Shown one piece after another: positions 17,615 to 51,424 of a DNA stretch of 64,000 bases (within the stretch, counting starts at the first letter, position 1; each line of letters opens with the position of its first letter). This stretch comes from a virus. The stretch is taken from IMG/VR virus record IMGVR_UViG_3300008516_000204, positions 32,001 through 96,000 of that record. One strand, given 5' to 3'. The position numbers and the translations under genes are program-made. Below the pieces are notes generated by a model. The model did not search any database, was not told where the DNA came from, and saw only the letters and a program-made list of their open reading frames with translations.

Positions 17615-18328
17615 ATGATTAGACTTAAGACAGATAAAGATATTCAGTTAATTGAGAAGGCAATCGAAATAGGAAAAAATGCTTTATCGGTTGCCAAGCA
17701 AATTACTGTTGTCGGGATTACTACACAGGAGATAGATAGGCAAGTGGAAGCATACATTCTTAAAAAGGGTGCCGCTCCCTCGTTCAAAGGCTACAAGGGC
17801 TTTCCTACTGCTTGTTGTATAAGTTTGAATAATGAGATAGTACATGGATATCCCAGAGATAACAAGATAAAAAGCGGTGATATAGTCAAGATAGATATTG
17901 GTATATGCTTTAAGAGCAGATATTCCGACCAAGCAATTACATTTGTAGTTGGAGAAGGCAAGTCTAAAAAGCATCTTGATTTAGTATATACAACCAAACT
18001 GGCATTAGAGAGAGCAAAAAAGGTTGCTATTCCAAATAATACTTTGAATCAGATTTCGTGGGAAATACAGCGAACAGCACAGGAAAATGGATTGGGTATA
18101 GTTACTGCTTATACAGGACATGGCGTGGGTTTTGAAATTCACGAAGAACCAATTATCAGAAATATTGTTACTCCAAATGAAAATATGCGATTAGTAAAAG
18201 GAATGGTGTTGGCTATTGAGCCGATGTTTGCATTAGGAAAGGGCGATGTTGAAGATAAAGGATATGCTGTTGTAACTAAAGATAATAGTATGTCCTCCCA
18301 TTTTGAGGAAACAATTATCGTAAGATGA
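17615..18328 (+). CDS. map: Type I methionine aminopeptidase
   Basis: PSFKGYKGFP, CISLN..IVHG.P, D.V.ID.G, YSD, GHGVG..IHEEP, AIEPM, SHFEET. Confidence 0.95.
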   Translation: MIRLKTDKDIQLIEKAIEIGKNALSVAKQITVVGITTQEIDRQVEAYILKKGAAPSFKGYKGFPTACCISLNNEIVHGYPRDNKIKSGDIVKIDIGICFKSRYSDQAITFVVGEGKSKKHLDLVYTTKLALERAKKVAIPNNTLNQISWEIQRTAQENGLGIVTAYTGHGVGFEIHEEPIIRNIVTPNENMRLVKGMVLAIEPMFALGKGDVEDKGYAVVTKDNSMSSHFEETIIVR

Positions 18329-18930
18329 AAAAGAGTAAGACAAAAAAACTACTGTGTGAATATTGGAATCAGGGCAAAATCTGCGGTCTTGATAGAACTA
18401 AGCATTGCCCCTATACCAAAGCCACCAGTTACAAATGCGAGAGCTGGCTCAAGCGGATAAAACGACGCAAGAAAGGGATACATATTCCTGTGATAATTAC
18501 CGATACAAGAGAAAATTGTGGCTACTTATTCAAGGGCAAAGAGGCAGAGGCAAAAATAGTTATGAAGAAACTGGCAACAGGAGATTACAGTTTGGAAGGC
18601 TTCGAGAACGATATAGTCATAGAAAGAAAGCGGATAAACGAACTCTTTGGGAATTTTGCTGGGGACAGGGAACGATTTATGCGGGAAGTTGAACGAATGG
18701 AAAAAATCCCATATAAGTTTCTCTTGATAGAGGGTTCATTCAAAGATTTAGCCCAAATGAAAAAAGTCCCAGGCAAAGTCAGTATTAAATTAGTGGTGGC
18801 TACCCTCATCAGTTTGATGATAAAGCACAATGTAAAAGTTGTATTCGCTGGAAATCCGAAACTGGCGGAACAGTTGGCATATAGGATTCTTATCAAGTTT
18901 TTTAACTATAAGATAAAAGGGGATGTATAA
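18325..18930 (+). CDS. ERCC4-domain nuclease
   Basis: DTRE, TGDYSL, IERK, RF.RE..R, LLIEG. Confidence 0.88.
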   Translation: MKKSKTKKLLCEYWNQGKICGLDRTKHCPYTKATSYKCESWLKRIKRRKKGIHIPVIITDTRENCGYLFKGKEAEAKIVMKKLATGDYSLEGFENDIVIERKRINELFGNFAGDRERFMREVERMEKIPYKFLLIEGSFKDLAQMKKVPGKVSIKLVVATLISLMIKHNVKVVFAGNPKLAEQLAYRILIKFFNYKIKGDV

Positions 18931-19304: not shown

Positions 19305-20422
19305 AAAAAGAGAAATAGAAAGGAAATATAATGGAGTTTATTAGATTCTTACGATTTTGGTGGCGATACAAAGCATTGGGATTTAAAAGATGTTGGAGAG
19401 AAAGAGAGAATTTTAAAAGATTAGTTCGTTTAATAGACGAGTTTTAGGAGGAGAATTAGATGGATTGGTTAGATAAAGAACTTGCTTTTATAACTTGGCT
19501 TTATAAATATAGTAACTTTTTTGGACAGTTAAAGCGGAAAGAGTTTAAGGAATTTCTCACCAGAAAAGAGGCTTGGGAACAATTTTGTAAGGAAATAGGA
19601 GAAGATAGGTGTCCAAACTGTGGTGGTGAATATCAACAGATTGGAAAATATTTCACCGCAGAAGGATATAAGATTTTAATTGATGGCTGTAAAAATTGTG
19701 GGCACACGAGGGAAAGATAAAATGGCAAATGATGTATGGCTTATGACTCCCGAAATCTATATGGAGATATACAGATTGGCTGTGAAGCATGGCAAGAAGG
19801 TTGGGGATTCGATGGCGGAGGAGTTTAAGGAAATTTTGCAAAAGAGAAAAGGTGAAATCGAGCATCTGGGGACTTCTGATAAGGATGCAGATTTATTGAC
19901 AGGGAATCTTCGTGAAGAAGGTTTGAAAATAATAAACCTCAGAGAACTGGAAAAAGAATGATACTGCGAAAGGTAAACAAATGAAACATCCTAAATTAAG
20001 AGCAAGGAAAAGACCAAAAAGAACGAATATCCGTAAAACTAAGCAAGATATTACAGAAATTATTGAAAATAGTCAAAGAGATATTCGTTGGTATTTGGCT
20101 AAAGATATTATGGATTATTTGAAGAAAAGAGGTATGTTAGATGTCAGGAAGAAAGACAAGAAGAAAAATAAAAAGAAGAAAAAGAAATAAACATAGATTA
20201 AGAACAAGAGGATTTGTTGAAAATCTTACACATTTCTTTTTAAAAGGAAGAGTTACTGACAAGTATACCAAAATAACTACTTTAATGATTATAGTATTAG
20301 AACTATATTGGACAACATTAGATTCTGTTTGGTTTGCTGTTGAAATGTGGTCTCCAATTCCAGTATTAGTAAACATATTGGTTATGTTATTCTTACTTCG
20401 ATTAATAAATGGGAAGTAGAAA

Positions 20423-20623
20423 ATGAAAGACCCAAAAAGAATAAATAGAATATCAAAATTGATTGGGAAGATTTGGAGAAAAAATCCTAGTTTGAGATTA
20501 TGCCAATTAATAGGAAATTGCTTTAATTTTAGCACAAACGATACTTCAATAATAAACGATTTATATTATATAGAAGATGACGAATTGGAACGAAGATTAA
20601 GAGAGATATATAAGGAGGAATAA
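20423..20623 (+). CDS. Conserved phage hypothetical protein (DUF1040/YihD-like)
   Basis: DPKRI...IW...P.LRL.QLI.N...DLYYIEDD. Confidence 0.55.
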   Translation: MKDPKRINRISKLIGKIWRKNPSLRLCQLIGNCFNFSTNDTSIINDLYYIEDDELERRLREIYKEE

Positions 20624-20625
20624 AG

Positions 20626-20919
20626 TTGAGTCTGCATAAGACATTGAAGCCGAGAAGAAAAAAGGTTCGTTCCGTTCTAAAGAGACATGAAAGATTGGCA
20701 AAGGCTATTAGGGAACGGAATTGGCTCAAAAAGATGGGTGCATATGGTTTACCCAAGTTTAACCCACTAAAATTTAAAGTGAAAAAGAAAGAGGAAGAAG
20801 AGCAAACAACTACATTAGGTAAAGTTGATATTGTAGCACAGCATAAATTAGAGAAAGAAAAATTAAGAGAAGAAAAAAAACAGAGAAAGAAAGGGAAAGA
20901 TACAACTGGAATAAGATGA
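20626..20919 (+). CDS. PVC-superphylum signature 'small basic protein' homolog
   Basis: MSLHKTL...RSVLKRHERL......W....YGLPK fits the family pattern MS.H.S...R.VLKR.ER...W...GLPK. TTG start with AAGGAGG RBS. Confidence 0.75.
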   Translation: MSLHKTLKPRRKKVRSVLKRHERLAKAIRERNWLKKMGAYGLPKFNPLKFKVKKKEEEEQTTTLGKVDIVAQHKLEKEKLREEKKQRKKGKDTTGIR

Positions 20920-21518
20920 TTAAATATTGCCTATGTGGTAATAAAATAGATAAAAGGTCTAAAAATTGTAGAATATGTGCTAACTTGGGAATAAATAATC
21001 CAAGATATGAATTTAGTAAATATAATATAACTAAAGAATTTTTGATAGAAGAATATCTTAATAATAGAAATTCCATTTCTCAAATTGCAAGAAAGAAAAA
21101 ATGTTCCGAATCTTGTATTTATAGTAAATTGAAGAAATTTCAAATTCGGATTAGGACAAGAAGCGAAGCTAATAAAGGAATAAGTAGAGGTTTGGGTAAG
21201 AAACGACTTCCTTTTACAAAGGTGTGGAAAAGAAGAATTAGTGAAAACCATGCAGATTTTTCTGGTAAAAATAATCCCAGATTTGGTAAAAGATTATCCA
21301 AATAAACGAGAAGAAAAATCAGAACTACAAAAGTCAAACATCATGTTTATTTAAAAGAAAATAAAGACGATACGGTACTTATTAAGCAATCAATTCATCG
21401 TAAATTACACGCATATGCTTATAATTATTTAGTAGAACTTGGTTTAATTAAAAAATATATTAAATGGTTTGAAAAAAAATTGAAAATAAAATTAATGAAA
21501 ACTATGGGGAGGAAATAA
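20916..21518 (+). pseudogene. Free-standing HNH-variant endonuclease with an in-frame TAA
   Basis: TAA 21303-21305 lies in a NUMOD3-like motif (LSK*TRRKI). The frame continues to HHVYLKEN...H.KLH..AY..YIKWF, homologous to 36098-36739. Confidence 0.8.
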
Positions 21519-21628: not shown

Positions 21629-21739
21629 ATGACATTGACTCCATTACAGCAGTTAATAATTATGGGAACTATCTATGTTTCTGTCTATGTTGGGATAGTT
21701 CTGTTTCTAAGACATTGTTACAGGAAAGATAAAAAATGA
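21629..21739 (+). CDS. 36-aa single-TM microprotein
   Basis: AAGGAGG RBS; MTLTPLQQLIIMG...RKDKK; ATGA coupling to the methyltransferase. Confidence 0.55.
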   Translation: MTLTPLQQLIIMGTIYVSVYVGIVLFLRHCYRKDKK

Positions 21740-23232
21740 AGCTCAAGAACCACCTATATTATTCAGAAAAAGGAATCAGGTTATACAATGCAGATTGTCT
21801 GGATGTTATGCGGAAACTGCCAGATGATTATGTGGATTTGATTGTAACCGATCCTCCTTATGGAATTTCCTTCATGGCAAAGGAGTGGGATACTTTTAAT
21901 GAGGTTAAGGATATTCAAAAAGAATTTAGTAATACTGTTTATGCTAAAAAAGGATTCAAGAAATTACCAAGAAATAAACCCTTTGGAATGATTAAATTTT
22001 TCGTGCCTATTTGGAAAGAAGCATTAAGAGTATTAAAGCCAGGAGCCTTTGCTTTTGTAATGTGTGCTCCTCGTCAGGATGTATTAAGTAAACAGATAGT
22101 AGCATTACAAGAGGCTGGATTTGAAACTGGGTTTAGTAGTGTTTATTGGAGTTATGCAACAGGATTCCCAAAAGCAAGTAATATAGGAAAGAAAATAGAT
22201 AAGAGATTAGGCAAAGAAAGAAAAATTATAGGAAAAAAACCAGGAAATTATGCTGATATTCGTAGAGACAAAAAAACAGGGCAGGATAGTCTTCATGGAG
22301 GGATTGCGACACAAAGAGAAAGAATAGAAAGTTTTATTACCGAACCAGCATCACCACAAGCCAAATCTCTTGATGGTTCTTATGGTGGCTTCCAACCCAA
22401 GCCAGCAGTTGAAATAATAATAGTAGCAATGAAACCTTTATCTGAAAAATCATATATAGACCAAGCATTAAAGAATAAACATGGTATTACATATTTAGAT
22501 AACTGTAGAATTCCTTATGAAAGTGATAATGACAAGAAGAAAGCCAAATTTGGGACTCAAACAGATATCAGGGGGAATGCTTATAATAAGAATAGACCAA
22601 GCGAGGGAAAAATTTATGCTAAAAATGTTTTATCATCCCAAAAAGGTCGTTTTCCCGCAAATTTGCTCGTGAGTAATGATGTATTAAATGATGGTGGGAA
22701 TTACAAAACAGGTAATCTGAATAGACGAGGTAATAGCAAATATTGGGGTTTAAATGGACAGGCTTTAAATCACAAGGGTAGTTCTGGTTCATATTCTCGT
22801 TATTTTTCACTTGATAAATGGTGGATAGAAAGAGTTAAAAAATTACCCCCAGAAGTTCAGAAAGTATTTCCTTATTTAATAGTGCCTAAAGCTAGTAAAA
22901 GAGAGAAAAATAGAGGATGCGAAAATTTACCTAAAAAACAAAAAGTATTTAATGGTCAAAGTAATCAATCATCTAAAGATATAAAAGATGTAGAAGAAAG
23001 ATTTACCACACAACCTACAAGTAATAATCACCCTACTGTAAAACCTATAAAACTCATGAGTTATCTCATTACTTTGGGAAGTAGGGAAAATGACATCGTA
23101 TTAGACCCGTTTGCTGGCTCTGGAACTACCTTGATTGCTTCCAAATTGCTCAATAGAAAAGGAATAGGAATTGAACTAAGCAAAGAATACTGCGAGATAG
23201 CGAAGCACAGGATAAAAGGTCGGTCAAAATGA
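21736..23232 (+). CDS. N6-A/N4-C DNA methyltransferase (beta class)
   Basis: TDPPYG, HPTVKP, LDPFAGSGTT, GIEL. Confidence 0.92.
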   Translation: MKLKNHLYYSEKGIRLYNADCLDVMRKLPDDYVDLIVTDPPYGISFMAKEWDTFNEVKDIQKEFSNTVYAKKGFKKLPRNKPFGMIKFFVPIWKEALRVLKPGAFAFVMCAPRQDVLSKQIVALQEAGFETGFSSVYWSYATGFPKASNIGKKIDKRLGKERKIIGKKPGNYADIRRDKKTGQDSLHGGIATQRERIESFITEPASPQAKSLDGSYGGFQPKPAVEIIIVAMKPLSEKSYIDQALKNKHGITYLDNCRIPYESDNDKKKAKFGTQTDIRGNAYNKNRPSEGKIYAKNVLSSQKGRFPANLLVSNDVLNDGGNYKTGNLNRRGNSKYWGLNGQALNHKGSSGSYSRYFSLDKWWIERVKKLPPEVQKVFPYLIVPKASKREKNRGCENLPKKQKVFNGQSNQSSKDIKDVEERFTTQPTSNNHPTVKPIKLMSYLITLGSRENDIVLDPFAGSGTTLIASKLLNRKGIGIELSKEYCEIAKHRIKGRSK

Positions 23233-23304: not shown

Positions 23305-24123
23305 ATGAAGCAATATACTTTAGAACAATTTAAAACCAAATTGAATAAGATCTATTGCTGCGAGTGTTTGAAAGGAATGCAGGCTATACCAGATAAATCT
23401 GTAGATTTAGTAGTTACTTCTCCTCCCTACGATGCTATTAGAGATTATAAAGGATTTGGTTTGGATTTGAATAAAGTTGGAATTGAGTTAGGAAGAATAT
23501 TAAAAGAAGGAGGTATTTGTGTAATAGTTATTCAGGATCAAACTAAAAATTTTAGAAAGTCATTAACTTCTTTTAAAACTATAGTCAATTGGTGTGAAAA
23601 TACAGAGATGGATTTATTTGAGTGTGTAATTTATTCTCGTCAAGGGAGACCTGGAGCTTGGTGGAAAACAAGATTTAGAGTAGACCACGAATATATACCG
23701 ATTTTTTTAAAAGGGAAAAGACCTCAATATTTTGATAAATCTCATTTAACAGTTAAATTAGACCATAATTGGAGCGCAAAAGGAACAACTAGAATGACAG
23801 ATGGGAGAACTTTACATAATACAAGTGGAAATATTGGAAATACTAAAACACAAGGAACTATTTTTCATTATTCCAATTCTGCTTCTGAATCTTGCATTGA
23901 TAAAAAAATTAAACTCAAACATCCAGCAACTTTTCCAGATAAATTAGCGGAAGATTTTATTAAATGTTTTTGTCCAGAGAATGGAATTGTTCTTGACCCA
24001 TTTATGGGAAGTGGAACTACTTTAAAAATGGCTAAATTAAATGGTAGAAAGTTTATCGGTTTTGAAATATCGCAAGAATATGTAGATATCGCTAATAAAC
24101 GATTAGCAGAAATTAAGGATTAA
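23305..24123 (+). CDS. DNA methyltransferase, SPPY type (N4-C likely)
   Basis: TSPPY, HPATFP, LDPFMGSGTT. Confidence 0.92.
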   Translation: MKQYTLEQFKTKLNKIYCCECLKGMQAIPDKSVDLVVTSPPYDAIRDYKGFGLDLNKVGIELGRILKEGGICVIVIQDQTKNFRKSLTSFKTIVNWCENTEMDLFECVIYSRQGRPGAWWKTRFRVDHEYIPIFLKGKRPQYFDKSHLTVKLDHNWSAKGTTRMTDGRTLHNTSGNIGNTKTQGTIFHYSNSASESCIDKKIKLKHPATFPDKLAEDFIKCFCPENGIVLDPFMGSGTTLKMAKLNGRKFIGFEISQEYVDIANKRLAEIKD

Positions 24124-24125
24124 AT

Positions 24126-26666
24126 ATGTCTATATACTGCACAAAATGTCCTTTACACTTAACAAGCTTTACAAACGACAAGAAACATAAGGTAATCTGT
24201 CTTTCTGGTTGTGGCTCTAAATCTGCCAAGATTATGCTCATCGGCGAAGCACCAGGGAATGATGAGCTATTTAAGAAAGAGCCATTTGTGGGCAAGGCAG
24301 GCAAAGAACTGGACAAATGTTTGAAAGAGGCAGGGATAAATCGAGCCGAGATATTTTTGAGCAATAGTTGTCGTTGCCGACCACCAGATAATCGTGACCC
24401 AAATGCCAAAGAACTAAAAGCCTGCCGAGAATTTTTGGTGAATGAGATAAACGCTATCAAACCCAATGTCATCGGGCTTCTCGGTAATATAGCGATGAAG
24501 CAGGTTCTGGGCAAAACTGGTTCACTAAAGTATCAGGGGCAACCATTTTGGAGCGATGAGTTTCAGGTTACTTGTATACCACTTATTCATCCCAGTTATA
24601 TTATTAGAAATCAGGATAATATGGAGATTAGGGAGAAATTTATCAATGCCCTCAAATTTGTTAAGGAAGCCAGCAAAACTAAAAATCCAATTAAGCGGAA
24701 AGTTTCACCAGTTAAATATGTAGTTTGCGATAATATGAAGAAAGTTAAGGCACTATTTTCAAGATTAAGGCAGATTAAAGAGAATTCTATTGACACAGAA
24801 TCGACTTCCTTGCGACCTTATAATGGCAAATTGCTTTGTGCGTCTTTTAGCTGGAAGGAAAATACTGGAATAGTCCTGCCTATTTTGGGCAGAAACCTCA
24901 AGCGGATTTGGAACAATCAGCAATATAATTGGATCTTGGGCGAGCTTCGCAAATATTTTAGTAGAAAAAATGTCAAGAAAATATATCAAAATGGTAAGCA
25001 TGATATTCAATGGTTCAAATATCACCTCGGCATAGAAAGCACGATAGAGTTTGATACTCAGTTGGCTCATTATTCTTTGAATATGGAATCGCCTCGACAC
25101 AGTCACGGACTAAAGGAAATGGCTTGGACTTTTACAGATATGGGGAACTATGCTGAAAAAGTTGACCCAAAACAATTTGGCGACCCAAAATATATTAAAG
25201 AACATTACGATGATATAATGCAATATGCCTGTGCGGATGCCGATTGCACTTTCAGGATTTACCGCAAATTATCGCCACAAATTACAAAAGAAAAAATGGA
25301 CTATGTTCTTTATAACATAATGCTTCCAGAATCCATAGTCTTGGCAGATATTGAACTAAATGGTGTCCAAATTGACAGGAAAAAATTGGAACGACTAAAA
25401 TTTCAGTATGCTCGCAACTTGAATGCAACCGAAACCAAACTTTATTCTCTGCCAGCGATTAAAACAGTTGGGAACAAGCAATATAAGAAACTTGTTGATA
25501 AGCAGAAAGCCAAGTATAAAAATTCCAAAATAATTAAGAAGCGACACACATTAAAAGAATATCTGGACAAGGTTGAGCGACCCAAGTTCAATTTCAAATC
25601 GCACCAGCAATTAGCCATATTGTTTTATGATATTTTGAAAATGCCCAAACCAGAGAAAACGAAGAAGGGAACAGCATTATCCACAGATAAAAAGACATTG
25701 GAAAAATTGGAAGGGAAACATCCCGTTATAAAACTGATTCTCAAATATAAGAAGCTGACGAAGATGTATAATACTTATATCTGCCCGACACTTGAATCTT
25801 TGGATGAGAACGACAGGATACACACGGAATATAATCAGCACATCACTCGGACTGGTAGAATTTCGTCAAGCAGACCGAATCTCCAGAATGTTCCGAAGGA
25901 GTATGGCAAGGATTTTAGGGACTGTTTTATAGCAAAAAAGGGACATAGACTATTGGAAGCAGATTCGAAACAAATCGAGTTTAGAGTATTGGCACATTTA
26001 TCCCAAGACCAGAGAATGATTGCTGATATAAAAAGTGGAAAAGATATTCATACCATTACAGCATCAAGATTGTATAGGACAAAAGAAGAAGATGTTACCA
26101 AGGAACAGCGTGATAAAAGCAAGCCATTCGTTTTCGGCGTACCTTATGGTCGTGGTGCGAAAGCCATCGCTGAACAATATAAGCTGACGCTGAAAGAGGC
26201 GGAGGAACAGTTGAGATACTTCAATCAGATTTATCCGAGGGCTTCCAGATGGAACAAGGCAGCAGTGAGTGGTGCTAAAAGACACGAATATGTTAAGAGT
26301 TGGTTCGGGAGAAAAAGACCACTATTCCATATTAATGATAAGGATAAAATGTTGTCCGAGAAAGACGAGAGAAAAGTCGTGGCATCGGCTGTCCAATCAA
26401 CCGCTTCAGACATTGTTGCCTTGCAAATGGTTGAGGTATATAAGAGATTAAGGGCGAATACCAAATCCAGAATTGTGCTAACCATTCACGATAGCATTGT
26501 AAGCGAAGTTCCCGACAATGAGATTGAAAAGGTTACAGGAATAGTAAAAGAGGAGATGACCAAAGCTCCTAAAGGATTCAGAGTTCCTCTGGATACCGAT
26601 GTCAAGGTCGGGGAACAATGGGGTTCTATGCACGATTCAGATAAGGTTGAAAGCGAGGAAGAATAA
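24126..26666 (+). CDS. polA: Family-4 uracil-DNA glycosylase fused to family A DNA polymerase (3'-5' exo + pol)
   Basis: GEAPG..E..PFVG.AG, CRP, HPS and Fe-S Cys (UDG4); DTES, HD, YACAD (exo); TGRISS..PNLQN, ADSKQIE, R..K...FG..YG, IHDS (pol). Confidence 0.95.
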   Translation: MSIYCTKCPLHLTSFTNDKKHKVICLSGCGSKSAKIMLIGEAPGNDELFKKEPFVGKAGKELDKCLKEAGINRAEIFLSNSCRCRPPDNRDPNAKELKACREFLVNEINAIKPNVIGLLGNIAMKQVLGKTGSLKYQGQPFWSDEFQVTCIPLIHPSYIIRNQDNMEIREKFINALKFVKEASKTKNPIKRKVSPVKYVVCDNMKKVKALFSRLRQIKENSIDTESTSLRPYNGKLLCASFSWKENTGIVLPILGRNLKRIWNNQQYNWILGELRKYFSRKNVKKIYQNGKHDIQWFKYHLGIESTIEFDTQLAHYSLNMESPRHSHGLKEMAWTFTDMGNYAEKVDPKQFGDPKYIKEHYDDIMQYACADADCTFRIYRKLSPQITKEKMDYVLYNIMLPESIVLADIELNGVQIDRKKLERLKFQYARNLNATETKLYSLPAIKTVGNKQYKKLVDKQKAKYKNSKIIKKRHTLKEYLDKVERPKFNFKSHQQLAILFYDILKMPKPEKTKKGTALSTDKKTLEKLEGKHPVIKLILKYKKLTKMYNTYICPTLESLDENDRIHTEYNQHITRTGRISSSRPNLQNVPKEYGKDFRDCFIAKKGHRLLEADSKQIEFRVLAHLSQDQRMIADIKSGKDIHTITASRLYRTKEEDVTKEQRDKSKPFVFGVPYGRGAKAIAEQYKLTLKEAEEQLRYFNQIYPRASRWNKAAVSGAKRHEYVKSWFGRKRPLFHINDKDKMLSEKDERKVVASAVQSTASDIVALQMVEVYKRLRANTKSRIVLTIHDSIVSEVPDNEIEKVTGIVKEEMTKAPKGFRVPLDTDVKVGEQWGSMHDSDKVESEEE

Positions 26667-46182: not shown

Positions 46183-48485
46183 AACTCACAATAGTTACAC
46201 CAACCCACAATACCAAATATATCAAAGAGGCATATGATAGTCTACTTGCTCAAACTGACAAAGATTGGCAATGGCTTATTGTGCTAAATGGCGATGCCAA
46301 ATTTTTTGATATCAAGGATAAAAGGGTAAAACAAATTCCCTATCCAAATGCTCCAGTTAGCGTCGGAGCTGTAAAGAATTTCGCCTTCAGCCAAGTAAAG
46401 GAGGGTATTTGCGTTGAACTCGACCACGATGATTTACTCACACCGATCGCAGTCTAGCACATCAAAGAAGCATTTAGAAACACAGAGATAGGATTTGCTT
46501 ACAGCGACTTTGCGGAATTTTTAGATGTGTCTTGGAAGCCTTATACATATGGTTCTCAATATGGGTGGAAAGCCGAGGAAAGACACTGGTATGGGCATAA
46601 ATTTATATCTATGAGAGCATTTGAGCCATCTCCCCATTCTATTGGCAATATACATTTCGGACCAAATCACGTGAGGGCTTGGACAGTCGAGGCATACAAA
46701 AAAGCAGGGAAACACAATCCTGATTATCGAGTCTTGGATGACCAAGATTTAGTTTCAAGGACTTATCTAACGACAAAAATGAAACACATACCAGAGTGCC
46801 TATATTTATATCGCAATTATCCAGAACAATCATTTAGGAGATTTAATCAAGAAATTCAAAGTGGAACTCTTAAATTATATGACAAATACATATTCGACAT
46901 GGCAAAGAGATGGTGTCAATTAAATAATTATCCAATGGTTGATTTAGGTGCAAAGCATGGCAAGCCATTGGGATTTTTCGGGGTTGACTTATATGGAACT
47001 GATATTACTGTGGATTTGAACCAGGAATGGCCATTCAAGGACAGTTCGGTGGGGTTAATACGAGCCAACGACATAATTGAACACCTAAAAGACCCAGTGA
47101 ACACTATGAATGAGGCATACAGGATTTTGGTGGATGGTGGGTGGTTTTTAATCGAAGTTCCCTCGACAGATGGGCGTGGAACATACCAAGACCCTTCCCA
47201 TCGTTGTTATTCTCAAGATACTGAAATACTAACTACAAGTGGATTCAAACTCCTTTCGGAAGTTAAAAAGGGTGAAACTGTTTATACATTTAATAAAACA
47301 AATAATAAAGCTGAAATTCAACCTGTTATTAAAACTCATAAATATAAATATAACAGTCCGATGATTCATTTTAAACAACGAAGCATAGACTGTTTAGTAA
47401 CACCTAATCACAATATGTTTATAGGATCGTCAGATGATATTACTCCTTTCAGATTTAAAAAAGCCGAAAAACTGCTAACTATGAAATCATGTAAAAGAAT
47501 TCCAAGTAATGTTATTTTTGATGGGGATTATCCTGAGTATTTCGAAATTCCAAATTCCCAAAATAAAATATCAACTTATCCAGAAAAAATGAGATTTATT
47601 AATGATAGTGTAAGATTACCTATTAAACCATTTATGGATTTTATGGGATGGTATGTATCAGAGGGCTGGACACATATTGTTACTACTACAGATTCAAGAT
47701 ATAATTGTTACAATATCGGAATTAGCCAAAGTCAAAATGCTAATCCCATAAAATATCAGCAAATAGGACAATGTATTAAAGATTTAGGATATAAGCCACA
47801 TAAAACCAGTAATGGCTGGGGATTTTGTAGCAAATCTCTTGCTTTATGGTTATCTAAACTTGGAAAATCTCACGATAAATATATTCCTATTGCACTTAAA
47901 CAAATGCACCCAGAACTGCTTCAAATATTATTAGAATCCGCTTTATTAGGAGATGGCCATAAAAATGGTAAAACAGGTTACACTTATGGCACCATTTCAG
48001 AGCAACTATCCAAAGATATTCAAGAAATTGCTATAAAATGTGGTTATAAAACAACAGTTAGCAAAGATGCGACTAGAGTAGGAAAACCAGTTTCTATAAA
48101 TCCAGATTATAGAGCAAAGTATCCTATATATCTTGTATATCTTTCTTCACCAAAACAGCGATATTTAACACCAGATAATATTAAGCAAATTGATTATAGA
48201 GGTATGGTATATTGCGTAACTGTCCCAAAAAATAATGTTATATTAACTCGTAGAAATGGTAGAGTAATTTGGGCTGGAAACAGTTTCTGGAATAGCAATT
48301 CATTCTGGTATTATACAGACAGAAAATATGCTAAGTATGTTCCAGCAATTAAATGCAGATTTCAAGTGCAAAGAATATTAAATTACAATCCAACCGAGTT
48401 TCACAAGCAGAATTACATCTGCTATACGAGAGCACATTTAACTGCGATAAAGAATAAGCGATACCCAGGGACGATAAAAATATAA
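46179..48485 (+). pseudogene. GT2 glycosyltransferase + SAM methyltransferase fusion with an intein and an in-frame TAG
   Basis: TPTH, LDHDD, AV*HIKEAF (TAG 46455-46457, same frame as the downstream ORF), DDQDL, DLGA, IEHL, DPSH/SFWN. Confidence 0.82.
47205..48281 (+). mobile_element. Intein (359 aa) with LAGLIDADG endonuclease, in the methyltransferase domain
   Basis: HR|CYSQDTEILT; block B VTPNH; MGWYVSEG and LLGDG; block F VYCVTV; WAGN|S. Confidence 0.92.
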
Positions 48486-48946: not shown

Positions 48947-51424
48947 ATGAAATTAACTAATAAAGAACGAAAACTGTGGTTCCAGAAAATTTTGAGTCGG
49001 CGAGATAACTGCAAAAATCTGAGGGCTTTTGTCTATAATATCTTTGGGGTAAAATTATATTCTAACCAAGTAAAATCGTTGAGAGATTTTTTAGACCCAT
49101 CTATTAAGAAAGTTTTATTTTCATGTGCTCGCCAGGGTGGAAAAACAATGGATATTGCGATTGCTTGTGCAATCATTCCAATATTTTATGATAACATTCA
49201 TATGTATATTTTTGCCCCAAAACAGGAGCAGGCACAAATCAGCTTTGAACGGTTTTCCAGCCTTGTCCATACCAATCCCTATAATATCTATGCTGGCTCA
49301 TTAGCTGTAGATAAGTCAGATAGAATTAAATTCTCAAATGGGACAGAGATTAGGGCTGTAACCGCCTCACGAAATGCGGAAATCGAGGGATTAACTTGCC
49401 ATATCATAGTGCTTGATGAAGCCCAAGCAATATCACCATTTAAGGTGCGAGAATGTGTTTCTGGTAATATGAGGATTCCTTTACCAACTGGTGATTATGC
49501 AACTATGCCTGAAATTATTAAGAAACAACTTAAAGTTATTACTCCTGATGGTCCAGAAAGGCCAATTAGATATTTCAATGCTGGTATAGATATTCTACAT
49601 GCTATTTATTTAGATAATGGGAAAATTTTAAAAGTAAATAAAAATCATAAGCATCTTGTTTACAGCAAAAATTGGAGAGATATAAAATCAGGGGCGGTAA
49701 AGAAATTGAGAACAGATGAGTTAAAAGTTGGTCATCGTTTAGCTGTAGCAGATAAATTACCTTATTTTGGTAACGAGGGTACCTATGACGATGGTCTTAT
49801 AGTAGGTAGTTTTTTAGGCGATGGATCTATTTGTAATGATAAACCAGAATTTTGTGGGTGTCCTAAATTTGTATCTATAATATCATCTGTTATATGGAAA
49901 AAGTATAATTTGAAATTTAAACTTAAGCCAATAAAATCTAAAATTTTGGAAGGCGTATTTACAAATAATAAAGGGGGGAAATGGAATAGTAATCCTTTAA
50001 CAAAATATTTTCGTGATATGGGAATGTGGGGAATGAAAGGCGAATTTAAACAGATTCCTAATAAGCAATGGTCTAAGAAATTTCTTCGGGGTCTAATAGT
50101 TGGTCTTATTGAGACTGATGGTTGTATTAGTCATGTTAAAGAAAAAAAGGGAATTATATCATTTGGTAATATATCCAAAGAATTAGTAATCCAATTGCAA
50201 GATTATTTAGTTAAATTTGGAATACACGGCACCATTTTTCACAAAAAGAATAATAAAGGATTTGGTAAAAATCCTAAACCTTTTTATATTCTATCCATTA
50301 AGGGTATTGAAGATATTCGCAGATTCCATAAAAACTTCCAATTGATTACCAAGCAAAAAGTTTTAAACGAAATTGTTGATAATATGAAAAATAAGTCTCC
50401 AAGAATTTCCAGTAGGCACTATCCTAAAGGAATACGATTTATGCAGATTAAAAAAATTGAACAATCGGAGACAGAAAATGTTTATTGTGTTGAGGTCAAA
50501 AAGCATTTATGGATAGTTGATGGAATTATTACAGGAAATAGCATTTACCCAATGGGTGGAGCGGTTCCTGGCGGGGCTAAAATTATTCAGTGCGGTGTCC
50601 CAGGTGTTCGGGGGACACATTTTCACAAGGCGTTCAAAAATAAGTACGACCAAAAGATTAATCCTTTAGGTTATGTACAACATATCTATCCTTGGGATAA
50701 ATGCCCTATTTTAGACAGAGACTATGTATTGGCAAGAAAGGCAGAAGACCCAATCAGTTTCGCAACCCAGTATGAACTAAGCTGGGAAAAGTCCAATATC
50801 GGAATGTTCTTATCCGAGGAAGATTGGGCACGCTGTATCGTTCATTATGAGCTCAGGGATAAGAAAGGCAAGCCCCTGCGTGGCGAGTTTATGGGCATAG
50901 ACTTTGCAAAATTAAGGGATTCCACTGTCATTACAGAACTGAGGCAAGATCCAGACCATCTTGAGCAGTTTTATGTAGTAGGCTGGTGGGAACTCTCTGG
51001 GGTGGACTACGCCTCACAGATAGGTTTTATTAAGAACTTATGGCACAATGAGTTAAAGCAGATATATGCTGATAAATCATCTGTAGGAGAAGGGCCTTTG
51101 GATGTATTAAGGCAGACAGGCATGCCCATTGAGGGCTTTAATTTCGATATTCAGCATAAGGATAAATTATACAAGAACTTGGCAAACTTCATCCAAAAAG
51201 GGCAGATACACTGGCCAGCCTCGACTCCAAGAGGCTTTGAAAAGGAATATGCACATTTTAAGCAACAGATGATGGAATTGGAAAAGGAGTTCAAGCTATC
51301 GGGACTTATCTCTGTCCACCACAATTTGGATGATTCTCTGGGGAGAGATGATTTTCCCGATTCGATAGCTCTGGCTGTATGGGCAGCTACTCACTTTATT
51401 GAGCCTTCGGCATATACTGCATGA
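48947..51424 (+). CDS. terL: Terminase large subunit with intein
   Basis: Walker A ARQGGKT, Walker B IIVLDEA, F..QYE, GIDFAK..DST, DDFPDS. Confidence 0.92.
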   Translation: MKLTNKERKLWFQKILSRRDNCKNLRAFVYNIFGVKLYSNQVKSLRDFLDPSIKKVLFSCARQGGKTMDIAIACAIIPIFYDNIHMYIFAPKQEQAQISFERFSSLVHTNPYNIYAGSLAVDKSDRIKFSNGTEIRAVTASRNAEIEGLTCHIIVLDEAQAISPFKVRECVSGNMRIPLPTGDYATMPEIIKKQLKVITPDGPERPIRYFNAGIDILHAIYLDNGKILKVNKNHKHLVYSKNWRDIKSGAVKKLRTDELKVGHRLAVADKLPYFGNEGTYDDGLIVGSFLGDGSICNDKPEFCGCPKFVSIISSVIWKKYNLKFKLKPIKSKILEGVFTNNKGGKWNSNPLTKYFRDMGMWGMKGEFKQIPNKQWSKKFLRGLIVGLIETDGCISHVKEKKGIISFGNISKELVIQLQDYLVKFGIHGTIFHKKNNKGFGKNPKPFYILSIKGIEDIRRFHKNFQLITKQKVLNEIVDNMKNKSPRISSRHYPKGIRFMQIKKIEQSETENVYCVEVKKHLWIVDGIITGNSIYPMGGAVPGGAKIIQCGVPGVRGTHFHKAFKNKYDQKINPLGYVQHIYPWDKCPILDRDYVLARKAEDPISFATQYELSWEKSNIGMFLSEEDWARCIVHYELRDKKGKPLRGEFMGIDFAKLRDSTVITELRQDPDHLEQFYVVGWWELSGVDYASQIGFIKNLWHNELKQIYADKSSVGEGPLDVLRQTGMPIEGFNFDIQHKDKLYKNLANFIQKGQIHWPASTPRGFEKEYAHFKQQMMELEKEFKLSGLISVHHNLDDSLGRDDFPDSIALAVWAATHFIEPSAYTA
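49454..50539 (+). mobile_element. Intein (362 aa) with LAGLIDADG endonuclease, in TerL
   Basis: RE|CVSGNMRI; N.NH; GSFLGDG and GLIETDG; VYCVEV; ITGN|S. Confidence 0.92.

Follow-up and report, generated by a model that had tools for sequence, protein, structure and literature searches.

A diverged phage homologue of the PVC signature small basic protein, and its possible role as a mimic of a host nucleic-acid-binding factor

The HU-family protein TF1 of SPO1 and the chlamydial histone H1-like protein Hc1 are small basic proteins that bind nucleic acids. CT421.2 (TIGR04137; Chlam_Ver_rRNA, 'small basic protein') is another small, strongly basic protein, and in purified form the cellular protein reportedly binds DNA and RNA non-specifically. 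The family was proposed to be unique to Planctomycetes, Verrucomicrobia, Lentisphaerae and Chlamydiae, with about 53 residues in Chlamydiaceae and more than 80 in Planctomycetes (Gupta et al. 2012, PMC3444138; PMC2474590), and CT421.2 is among the top 100 expressed genes of C. trachomatis (PMC5541142). It has been put forward as the single protein that unites the whole Planctomycetes-Verrucomicrobia-Chlamydiae (PVC) superphylum, and serves as a cellular marker in metagenome screens. Phages with small basic host housekeeping proteins, such as bS21 or HU-like proteins, are already known; phage-borne small ribosomal proteins are an established precedent, and phage bS21 presumably takes the place of its host counterpart and biases the machinery (Mizuno et al. 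2019, PMC6375957; Chen et al. 2022, PMC9723584). Here we describe a small basic protein gene at positions 20626–20919 (plus strand) of a 64,000-nucleotide stretch of phage DNA from marine sediment (the window), which corresponds to bases 32001–96000 of IMG/VR virus record IMGVR_UViG_3300008516_000204 (106,111 bp, rated 100% complete). What is new is a diverged viral clade of TIGR04137 with a new tail; in the literature we found no phage-borne PVC signature protein and no mention of TIGR04137.

The protein resembles these systems in different ways. With TIGR04137 it shares a homologous N-terminal domain of about 47 residues, located at the extreme N-terminus of a small, very basic protein and carrying the same near-invariant residues in register, followed by a tail of variable length as in the Planctomycetota and Omnitrophota members. 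The likeness to phage bS21 is one of logic only, both being small, basic, host-type housekeeping proteins of large phages that are conserved within phage clades; bS21 is a proven ribosomal protein and has no sequence or structural relationship to the phage small protein, which matched no Pfam family. Histone-like and other nucleoid-associated proteins (HU, IHF, Hc1) are likewise small and basic, the tails of cellular TIGR04137 members resemble H1-like Ala/Lys/Pro tails, and the phage gene lies among genes of DNA metabolism. The phage tail, however, is Lys/Glu-rich and predicted to be helical, not H1-like, and TIGR04137 was the only match to the protein in NCBIfam, Pfam and PHROGs, with no nucleoid-associated family among the hits.

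Homology of the phage protein

The gene begins with a TTG codon and encodes 97 residues with an isoelectric point (pI) of 10.65, in keeping with the size and charge of the family (about 50–130 residues, strongly basic). An earlier note on this DNA, made from the letters alone, had reported an open reading frame (ORF) with a Lys/Glu-rich tail and a strong ribosome-binding site, and it had the coordinates and the translated sequence exactly right. The Shine-Dalgarno sequence AAGGAGG, read from the DNA at 20612–20618 (plus strand), stands 7 nt before the start. Orthologues in related phages start at the same aligned position, with ATG in L003 and L004 and TTG in L005, and this validates the TTG start. 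On the plus strand the gene encodes the N-terminal family domain (residues 1–47, 20626–20766; pI 11.9), in which the near-invariant family residues are present, a Lys/Glu-rich linker (residues 48–68, 20767–20829) with the phage-clade 'TTLGK' motif, and a phage-clade-specific tail (20830–20916) with a predicted long charged helix at residues 69–94 and a C-terminal end of the 'KETTGRK' type.

The match to TIGR04137 (E 5.6e-8, 32.5 bits) aligns residues 1–46 to positions 1–48 of the 50 in the profile, covering nearly the whole profile at the protein's own N-terminus, and in a six-frame search the gene scored 31 bits. The near-invariant positions M1, L7, R15, V17, L18, R20, E22, R23, W33, L42, P43 and K44 are all in register; S6 is Thr in this phage and Ser in the other members of the phage clade. 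A degenerate DNA motif of the family (R-x-V-L-x-R-x-E-R-[ILV], 16 residues, G-L-P-K) occurs once in the window, against 0.00 occurrences expected from 100 shuffles. Twenty-five close relatives of about 97 residues are conserved over their full length at 55–90% identity. The score of 32.5 bits is below the curated TIGR04137 cut-off of 50 bits and does not give strict membership, so a function equal to that of the cellular proteins cannot be assumed.

With a domain of only about 47 compositionally biased residues, a hidden Markov model (HMM) score under the cut-off, and weak matches of the model at E≤10 to nine of 14 non-PVC control genomes, one could suspect a chance resemblance of a short Lys/Arg-rich peptide without common ancestry. 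Several results speak against this, the last of them effectively refuting it. No control genome matched TIGR04137 at E≤0.001 (0 of 14), per-genome E-values in Omnitrophota reach 1e-17, and the twelve near-invariant positions coincide. A reciprocal profile, built from the 26 phage-clade clusters only and searched against 1.84 billion cluster representatives, returned 409 proteins at E≤1e-3, nearly all of 50–130 residues and matching at their own first ~60 residues; every one of the 148 aligned hits matched TIGR04137 (best E 4.5e-24). Because the reciprocal profile retrieves family members and the invariant residues are in register, the homology is firm on sequence grounds, and we regard the phage protein as truly homologous to, though diverged from, the PVC signature small basic protein. 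The suggestion in the earlier note that the phage carries a copy of a TIGR04137-type protein is thus upheld, though below the cut-off.

The phage clade and the cellular family

Across 2.9 million IMG/VR contigs the family motif turned up in just three besides this one, each belonging to the phage clade, and a tblastn search of GenBank phage records gave no match. The phage copies, together with the short-contig protein P0029, formed one clade with a support of 97 in quick trees and 98/99 in a careful tree. Hallmarks of this clade, which set it apart from cellular TIGR04137 proteins, are a 2-residue deletion before RSVLKR, 'GLPKFNP' in place of the cellular 'GLPK[IVT]K', and a conserved, Lys/Glu-rich, predicted helical tail with the motifs TTLGK, LLEQHKLAKE and KETTGRK. 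Cellular tails are low-complexity Ala/Pro/Lys or poly-Lys sequences and are lacking in Verrucomicrobiota, and no similarity of the phage tail to cellular tails was detectable. The ratio of nonsynonymous to synonymous substitution (dN/dS) among four phage orthologues was 0.07–0.25 in those comparisons whose synonymous sites are unsaturated, indicating that the phage gene is under purifying selection. The same gene order was found in all four phages whose DNA was compared: an ERCC4-type nuclease, small ORFs, the small protein gene, DNA methyltransferases (variable) and a UDG-PolA fusion. Sequence comparison thus presents a maintained viral gene and not a stray host fragment.

Relatives of the protein occur in bins of metagenome-assembled genomes (MAGs), and the contig could on that account be taken for a cellular fragment or chimera that carries the host's own copy. 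We consider this very improbable. The 106,111-bp record has 99-bp direct terminal repeats in addition to its completeness rating and its phage-type genes; the phage copies form one clade with its own tail, separate from every cellular copy; and the 401 Omnitrophota genomes searched yielded nothing of the phage type, their best match reaching 64 bits where members of the clade exceed 100 bits. Two members of the wider set are irregular: P0028, probably a chimeric call, joins a signal-peptide protein to the phage tail, and P0029 combines a phage-type N-domain with an unrelated acidic tail.

Some gene calls, namely P0027 and a protein atlas record that holds the truncated form only, start at an internal ATG (residue 37). 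A start at this position loses the whole homologous TIGR04137 domain, so that viral copies are easily missed in annotations; such truncated calls may be the reason that they have gone unnoticed. A related caution applies to metagenome screens: with a diverged phage copy in existence the marker is not strictly cellular, and hits need to have the viral clade excluded.

To survey the cellular family we scanned one genome per species, 185,579 species in all, for the motif. The scan gave at least 120 loci, each encoding a true family member. Among the loci listed, at least 58 were labelled Planctomycetota, at least 40 Verrucomicrobiota, at least 10 Omnitrophota, at least three Lentisphaerota and at least two Kiritimatiellota, and at least five were unlabelled. 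Every labelled locus among the matches listed was therefore from PVC, which, with the clean control genomes, agrees with the restriction to PVC asserted in the earlier note and indicates that the cellular family is PVC-restricted among these matches. No Chlamydiota were among the matches listed. Chlamydial members are reported to have a 2-residue indel (PMC2474590), which may break the fixed spacing of the motif, and our trees were built without chlamydial sequences. Exactly one match was present in 327 of the 401 Omnitrophota species genomes, and the cellular gene is typically a single-copy chromosomal gene of a PVC bacterium; the gene described here lies on a complete virus genome.

The family takes different forms in different phyla. 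Members from Verrucomicrobiota, Kiritimatiellota and Lentisphaerota have 50–52 residues and no tail; those from Planctomycetota have 64–127 residues, mostly with an 'MSxDKSLK' start, and Lys-rich tails; and those from Omnitrophota have 75–122 residues, the pattern 'MSIHPSL...RSVLKR' and Ala/Pro/Lys tails. Some database labels do not agree with these forms. Four MAGs of 1.0–2.3 Mb titled 'uncultured Planctomycetales/Planctomycetia bacterium' (L010, L031, L041 and L064) encode small basic proteins of the Omnitrophota type; GTDB assigns the genome of L064 (G005) to the same phylum as an Omnitrophota genome, and the NCBI labels of all four look wrong. The genome of L031 (G003) has two TIGR04137 genes above the cut-off, on contigs C37 (74.6 bits) and C30 (61.6 bits), in a family that is otherwise single-copy. 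A 10.6-Mb MAG titled 'uncultured Victivallales bacterium' (L115) encodes an 88-residue, tailed protein of the 'MSIHKSLV' type, unlike other Lentisphaerota proteins, which have 50–51 residues and no tail; either its label is doubtful or the gene is foreign.

Host and donor

The earlier note had proposed a PVC bacterium as host. Since the labelled matches listed for the cellular family are confined to PVC and selection acts on the viral copy, a host from PVC is a sound and well supported inference from sequence; the HMM hit is significant, and no host gene evidence lies firmly outside PVC. Within the superphylum, Omnitrophota is the probable host, another PVC lineage is a possible but clearly less likely one, and a host outside PVC is highly improbable. 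The preference for Omnitrophota is moderate and comes from composition, score medians and MAG-bin labels. The organism-named proteins among the nearest hits were all from Omnitrophota. Median scores with the phage profile, for the N-domain and the full length respectively, were 42.7 and 50.7 bits in Omnitrophota, 35.5 and 38.8 bits in Planctomycetota, and 29.9 and 28.3 bits in Verrucomicrobiota. The phage has a guanine-plus-cytosine (GC) content of 35%, and its tetranucleotide usage correlated at 0.47–0.53 with Omnitrophota loci (median GC 44–45%) and, at about 0.28, more weakly with loci of Planctomycetota and Verrucomicrobiota (GC about 59%). We also sought tRNA genes for host matching, and the whole 106,111-bp genome had none.

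Two other phage genes were tried as host markers. RecA gave a higher median for Omnitrophota (about 220 bits) than for Planctomycetota (about 203 bits), but identity was about 40% in both and RecA discriminates too weakly to serve. The short-form M17 aminopeptidase of the phage (15403–16317, plus strand; ~300 residues) has relatives at 52–64% identity that abound in metagenomes, and the five that carry an organism name were all in Omnitrophota MAGs. Only the long form of ~500 residues was present in 61 Omnitrophota genomes (38–44% identity) and 61 Planctomycetota genomes (31–42%). As Omnitrophota genomes hold only the long form, the named short-form hits are probably related phage contigs binned with Omnitrophota, and the short form may be a phage-specific lineage. 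We therefore rejected M17 as an ancestry-based host marker and retained it as a weak association.

Phylogeny of the small protein with PVC homologues, another of the checks suggested in the earlier note, gave a monophyletic phage clade but left the donor ambiguous between Omnitrophota and basal Planctomycetota-like lineages. In the quick tree the phage clade was sister to Omnitrophota, including the four MAGs mislabelled 'Planctomycetales', and the join had a support of only 70. Several findings weigh against Omnitrophota or limit the case for it. In the careful tree a split with 99/99 support set the phage clade with Planctomycetota, Omnitrophota forming a grade; the sister of the phage clade was L072, and L115, L040 (Brocadiaceae) and L095 (Ca. 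Uabimicrobium) were further neighbours. The top single N-domain score, 54.7 bits, came from L095; the M17 and RecA comparisons lean to Omnitrophota only slightly; and one relative in the phage clade, P0021, was found in a MAG labelled as an archaeon.

It is conceivable, then, that both host and donor belonged to another PVC lineage, for example low-GC basal Planctomycetota (relatives of Uabimicrobiia or Brocadiia) or an unnamed PVC phylum. Besides the careful tree and the score of L095, the start 'MS[IL]HKSLK', common to the phage clade, L072, L115, L040 and L095, speaks for such an origin, as does the failure of an argument from tails. The earlier note had seen in the Lys-rich extension a resemblance to Omnitrophota versions, but the likeness of the Omnitrophota 'KIKKEKAEKxETTxEG' to the phage 'KVKKKEEEEQTTTLG' was rejected as one of composition, a tail-only HMM giving medians of 0.7 bits for Omnitrophota and 0.8 bits for Planctomycetota, near the level of shuffled sequences. 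We nevertheless consider this origin rather unlikely. An approximately unbiased (AU) test did not reject the grouping of phage with Omnitrophota (p = 0.199); the loci L072, L115, L027 and L040 have 62–73% GC and are compositionally implausible as hosts of a phage at 35%, L095 (38% GC) being compatible; Omnitrophota medians were the best for the small protein, M17 and RecA alike; and the named short-form M17 relatives all lay in Omnitrophota bins.

The 80.9-kb contig that encodes P0021, the phage-clade member with an archaeal label, belongs to the MAG Candidatus Hodarchaeota archaeon and is probably a mis-binned phage, mis-binning in marine sediment being plausible. Strong Shine-Dalgarno sites, def, a RecA of bacterial type and replication genes of the DnaB/DnaG type together make an archaeal host very unlikely. 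As a sequence-based host marker, the viral clade could help to recognise phages that infect PVC bacteria, probably Omnitrophota; hardly any such phages have been characterised.

Predicted structure, possible function and gene neighbourhood

An AlphaFold model made with the family alignment predicted the N-domain with a confidence score (pLDDT) of 80–91 as an extended chain with one short helix (residues 20–29), followed by a low-confidence linker and one long charged helix (residues 69–94). The model has no globular core, and its global score (pTM) was 0.37. A Foldseek search against the PDB gave no match, and a wide VIA-align search returned only generic single helices (Z≤3.7). The predicted form is like that of proteins that take on their fold on binding a nucleic acid or a ribonucleoprotein, and its charge and extended structure are consistent with non-specific binding of DNA and RNA.

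We propose, with moderate confidence, that the phage protein is a captured, virus-adapted paralogue that mimics a nucleic-acid- or ribosome-binding factor of the host. An ancestor of the phage group would have captured the gene from a PVC bacterium, most likely an Omnitrophota and less likely a low-GC basal Planctomycetota-like lineage, and the gene would since have been kept as a fixed member of the operon of the phage replication module. During infection the basic N-terminal 47 residues may occupy the nucleic-acid site of the host protein, whether on ribosomal or other RNA or on DNA, and the phage-specific charged C-terminal helix, replacing the host's Ala/Pro/Lys tail, may change the outcome at that site. 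The phage protein could in this way take the place of an abundant host factor, or compete with it, and turn the machinery to the benefit of the phage. Such mimicry is inferred only; it would parallel that of phage bS21 or phage histone-like proteins. The idea in the earlier note that the phage may use its copy to replace or titrate a host factor is plausible in this light.

Within the mimicry proposal, a ribosome- or RNA-associated role seems the leading possibility, at just short of an even chance; a DNA- or nucleoid-associated role is a substantial second possibility, and some other role is unlikely. Four things point to the RNA role: the extended basic structure, the bS21 precedent, the set of nascent-chain enzymes encoded by the same phage (def, map and the M17 aminopeptidase), and a linkage with a pseudouridine synthase in bacteria. 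In 23 Verrucomicrobiota and Kiritimatiellota loci among L006–L125 (e.g. L008:4550-5332), the gene next downstream of the small basic protein gene, and on its strand, encodes an rRNA pseudouridine synthase of the RluB/RsuA-like type (S4 and PseudoU_synth_2 domains). The DNA role has in its favour the position of the phage gene in a replication and modification module and the likeness of cellular tails to those of H1.

Several observations count against the proposal or leave its RNA version with less to stand on. The cellular gene neighbours differ between phyla, those of Omnitrophota, where the gene follows genes for a SPOR-domain protein and an HD_5 protein, and those of Planctomycetota being unlike those of Verrucomicrobiota. 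The adjacency to rRNA genes that the name of the model suggests was rejected, since none of 18 cellular loci had an rRNA gene within 8 kb. The family profile matched no PDB chain at E≤1, and solved structures, ribosomes included, are without the family; bS21 was not found anywhere in the phage; and a place in a DNA replication and modification module would be no less natural for a DNA role than for an RNA one.

A more specific form of the proposal is rather doubtful. If the PVC signature protein were a lineage-specific ribosome-bound or rRNA-maturation protein, the N-domain of the phage paralogue might dock on the host ribosome, and the phage-only helix might reprogramme translation to phage messages, together with nascent-chain processing by Def, Map and M17. 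If true, this would make the phage clade the first viruses to encode a copy of a ribosomal component confined to one lineage, and the function of the PVC signature protein would become directly testable. Independently of this, a natural variant in which the N-domain is kept and the tail swapped could help functional work to dissect what the host protein binds.

The protein might instead act on the phage's own DNA, as a virion or DNA-condensing protein that coats or compacts it for replication, packaging or protection and leaves the host machinery alone. Its highly basic character would suit such a role, as would the place of its gene between a nuclease, DNA methyltransferases and a polymerase, the DNA binding that is said of the cellular family alongside RNA binding, and a second small, very basic ORF 440 nt upstream. 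We think it improbable, however, because the gene lies outside the minus-strand block of structural genes, which runs from 53.9 kb onward, because the protein matches no PHROG or virion-protein family, and because the conserved part is exactly the domain of the host family, which suggests a specific shared partner and not generic charge.

The genes around the small basic protein place this candidate mimic in a phage of the large tailed type. Its replication genes encode a primase-helicase and a fusion of UDG, 3'-5' exonuclease and family A DNA polymerase (PolA), the latter a single 846-residue ORF (24126–26666, plus strand) that is a conserved downstream landmark with 84–93% identity in related phages. 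Genes for recombination and nucleases encode RecA, SbcC- and SbcD-like proteins and the ERCC4-type nuclease (18325–18930, plus strand), the conserved upstream landmark of the syntenic block; the phage also has several DNA methyltransferases, and some of its genes bear inteins. Between the small protein and the polymerase lie two genes for N6/N4 DNA methyltransferases (21736–23232 and 23305–24123, plus strand). Upstream, an ORF of 66 residues (20423–20623, plus strand) that is conserved in both L003 and L005 stops 2 nt short of the small protein gene, whose stop codon in turn overlaps the start codon of the following ORF (ATGA, 20916–20919), and the gene is therefore a member of a tightly coupled string of small ORFs. 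A scan for promoters and terminators near the gene gave no signal above chance.

Some further ORFs of the window are worth recording. The second small basic ORF (19981–20190, plus strand) encodes an extremely basic protein of 69 residues with a poly-Lys end and no Pfam family. It is conserved in L004 (65%); conservation in L005 is weak (36%). The ORF that follows the small protein gene (20916–21305, plus strand) encodes 129 residues with a CxxC...CxxC motif and a weak HTH_28 match; it has no counterpart in L003–L005, and for this reason it may be a mobile insertion, for example a DNA-binding remnant of the homing-endonuclease type. Two large ORFs on the plus strand (46527–48485 and 48947–51424) have signatures of intein splicing domains, and the second also has a LAGLIDADG endonuclease domain.

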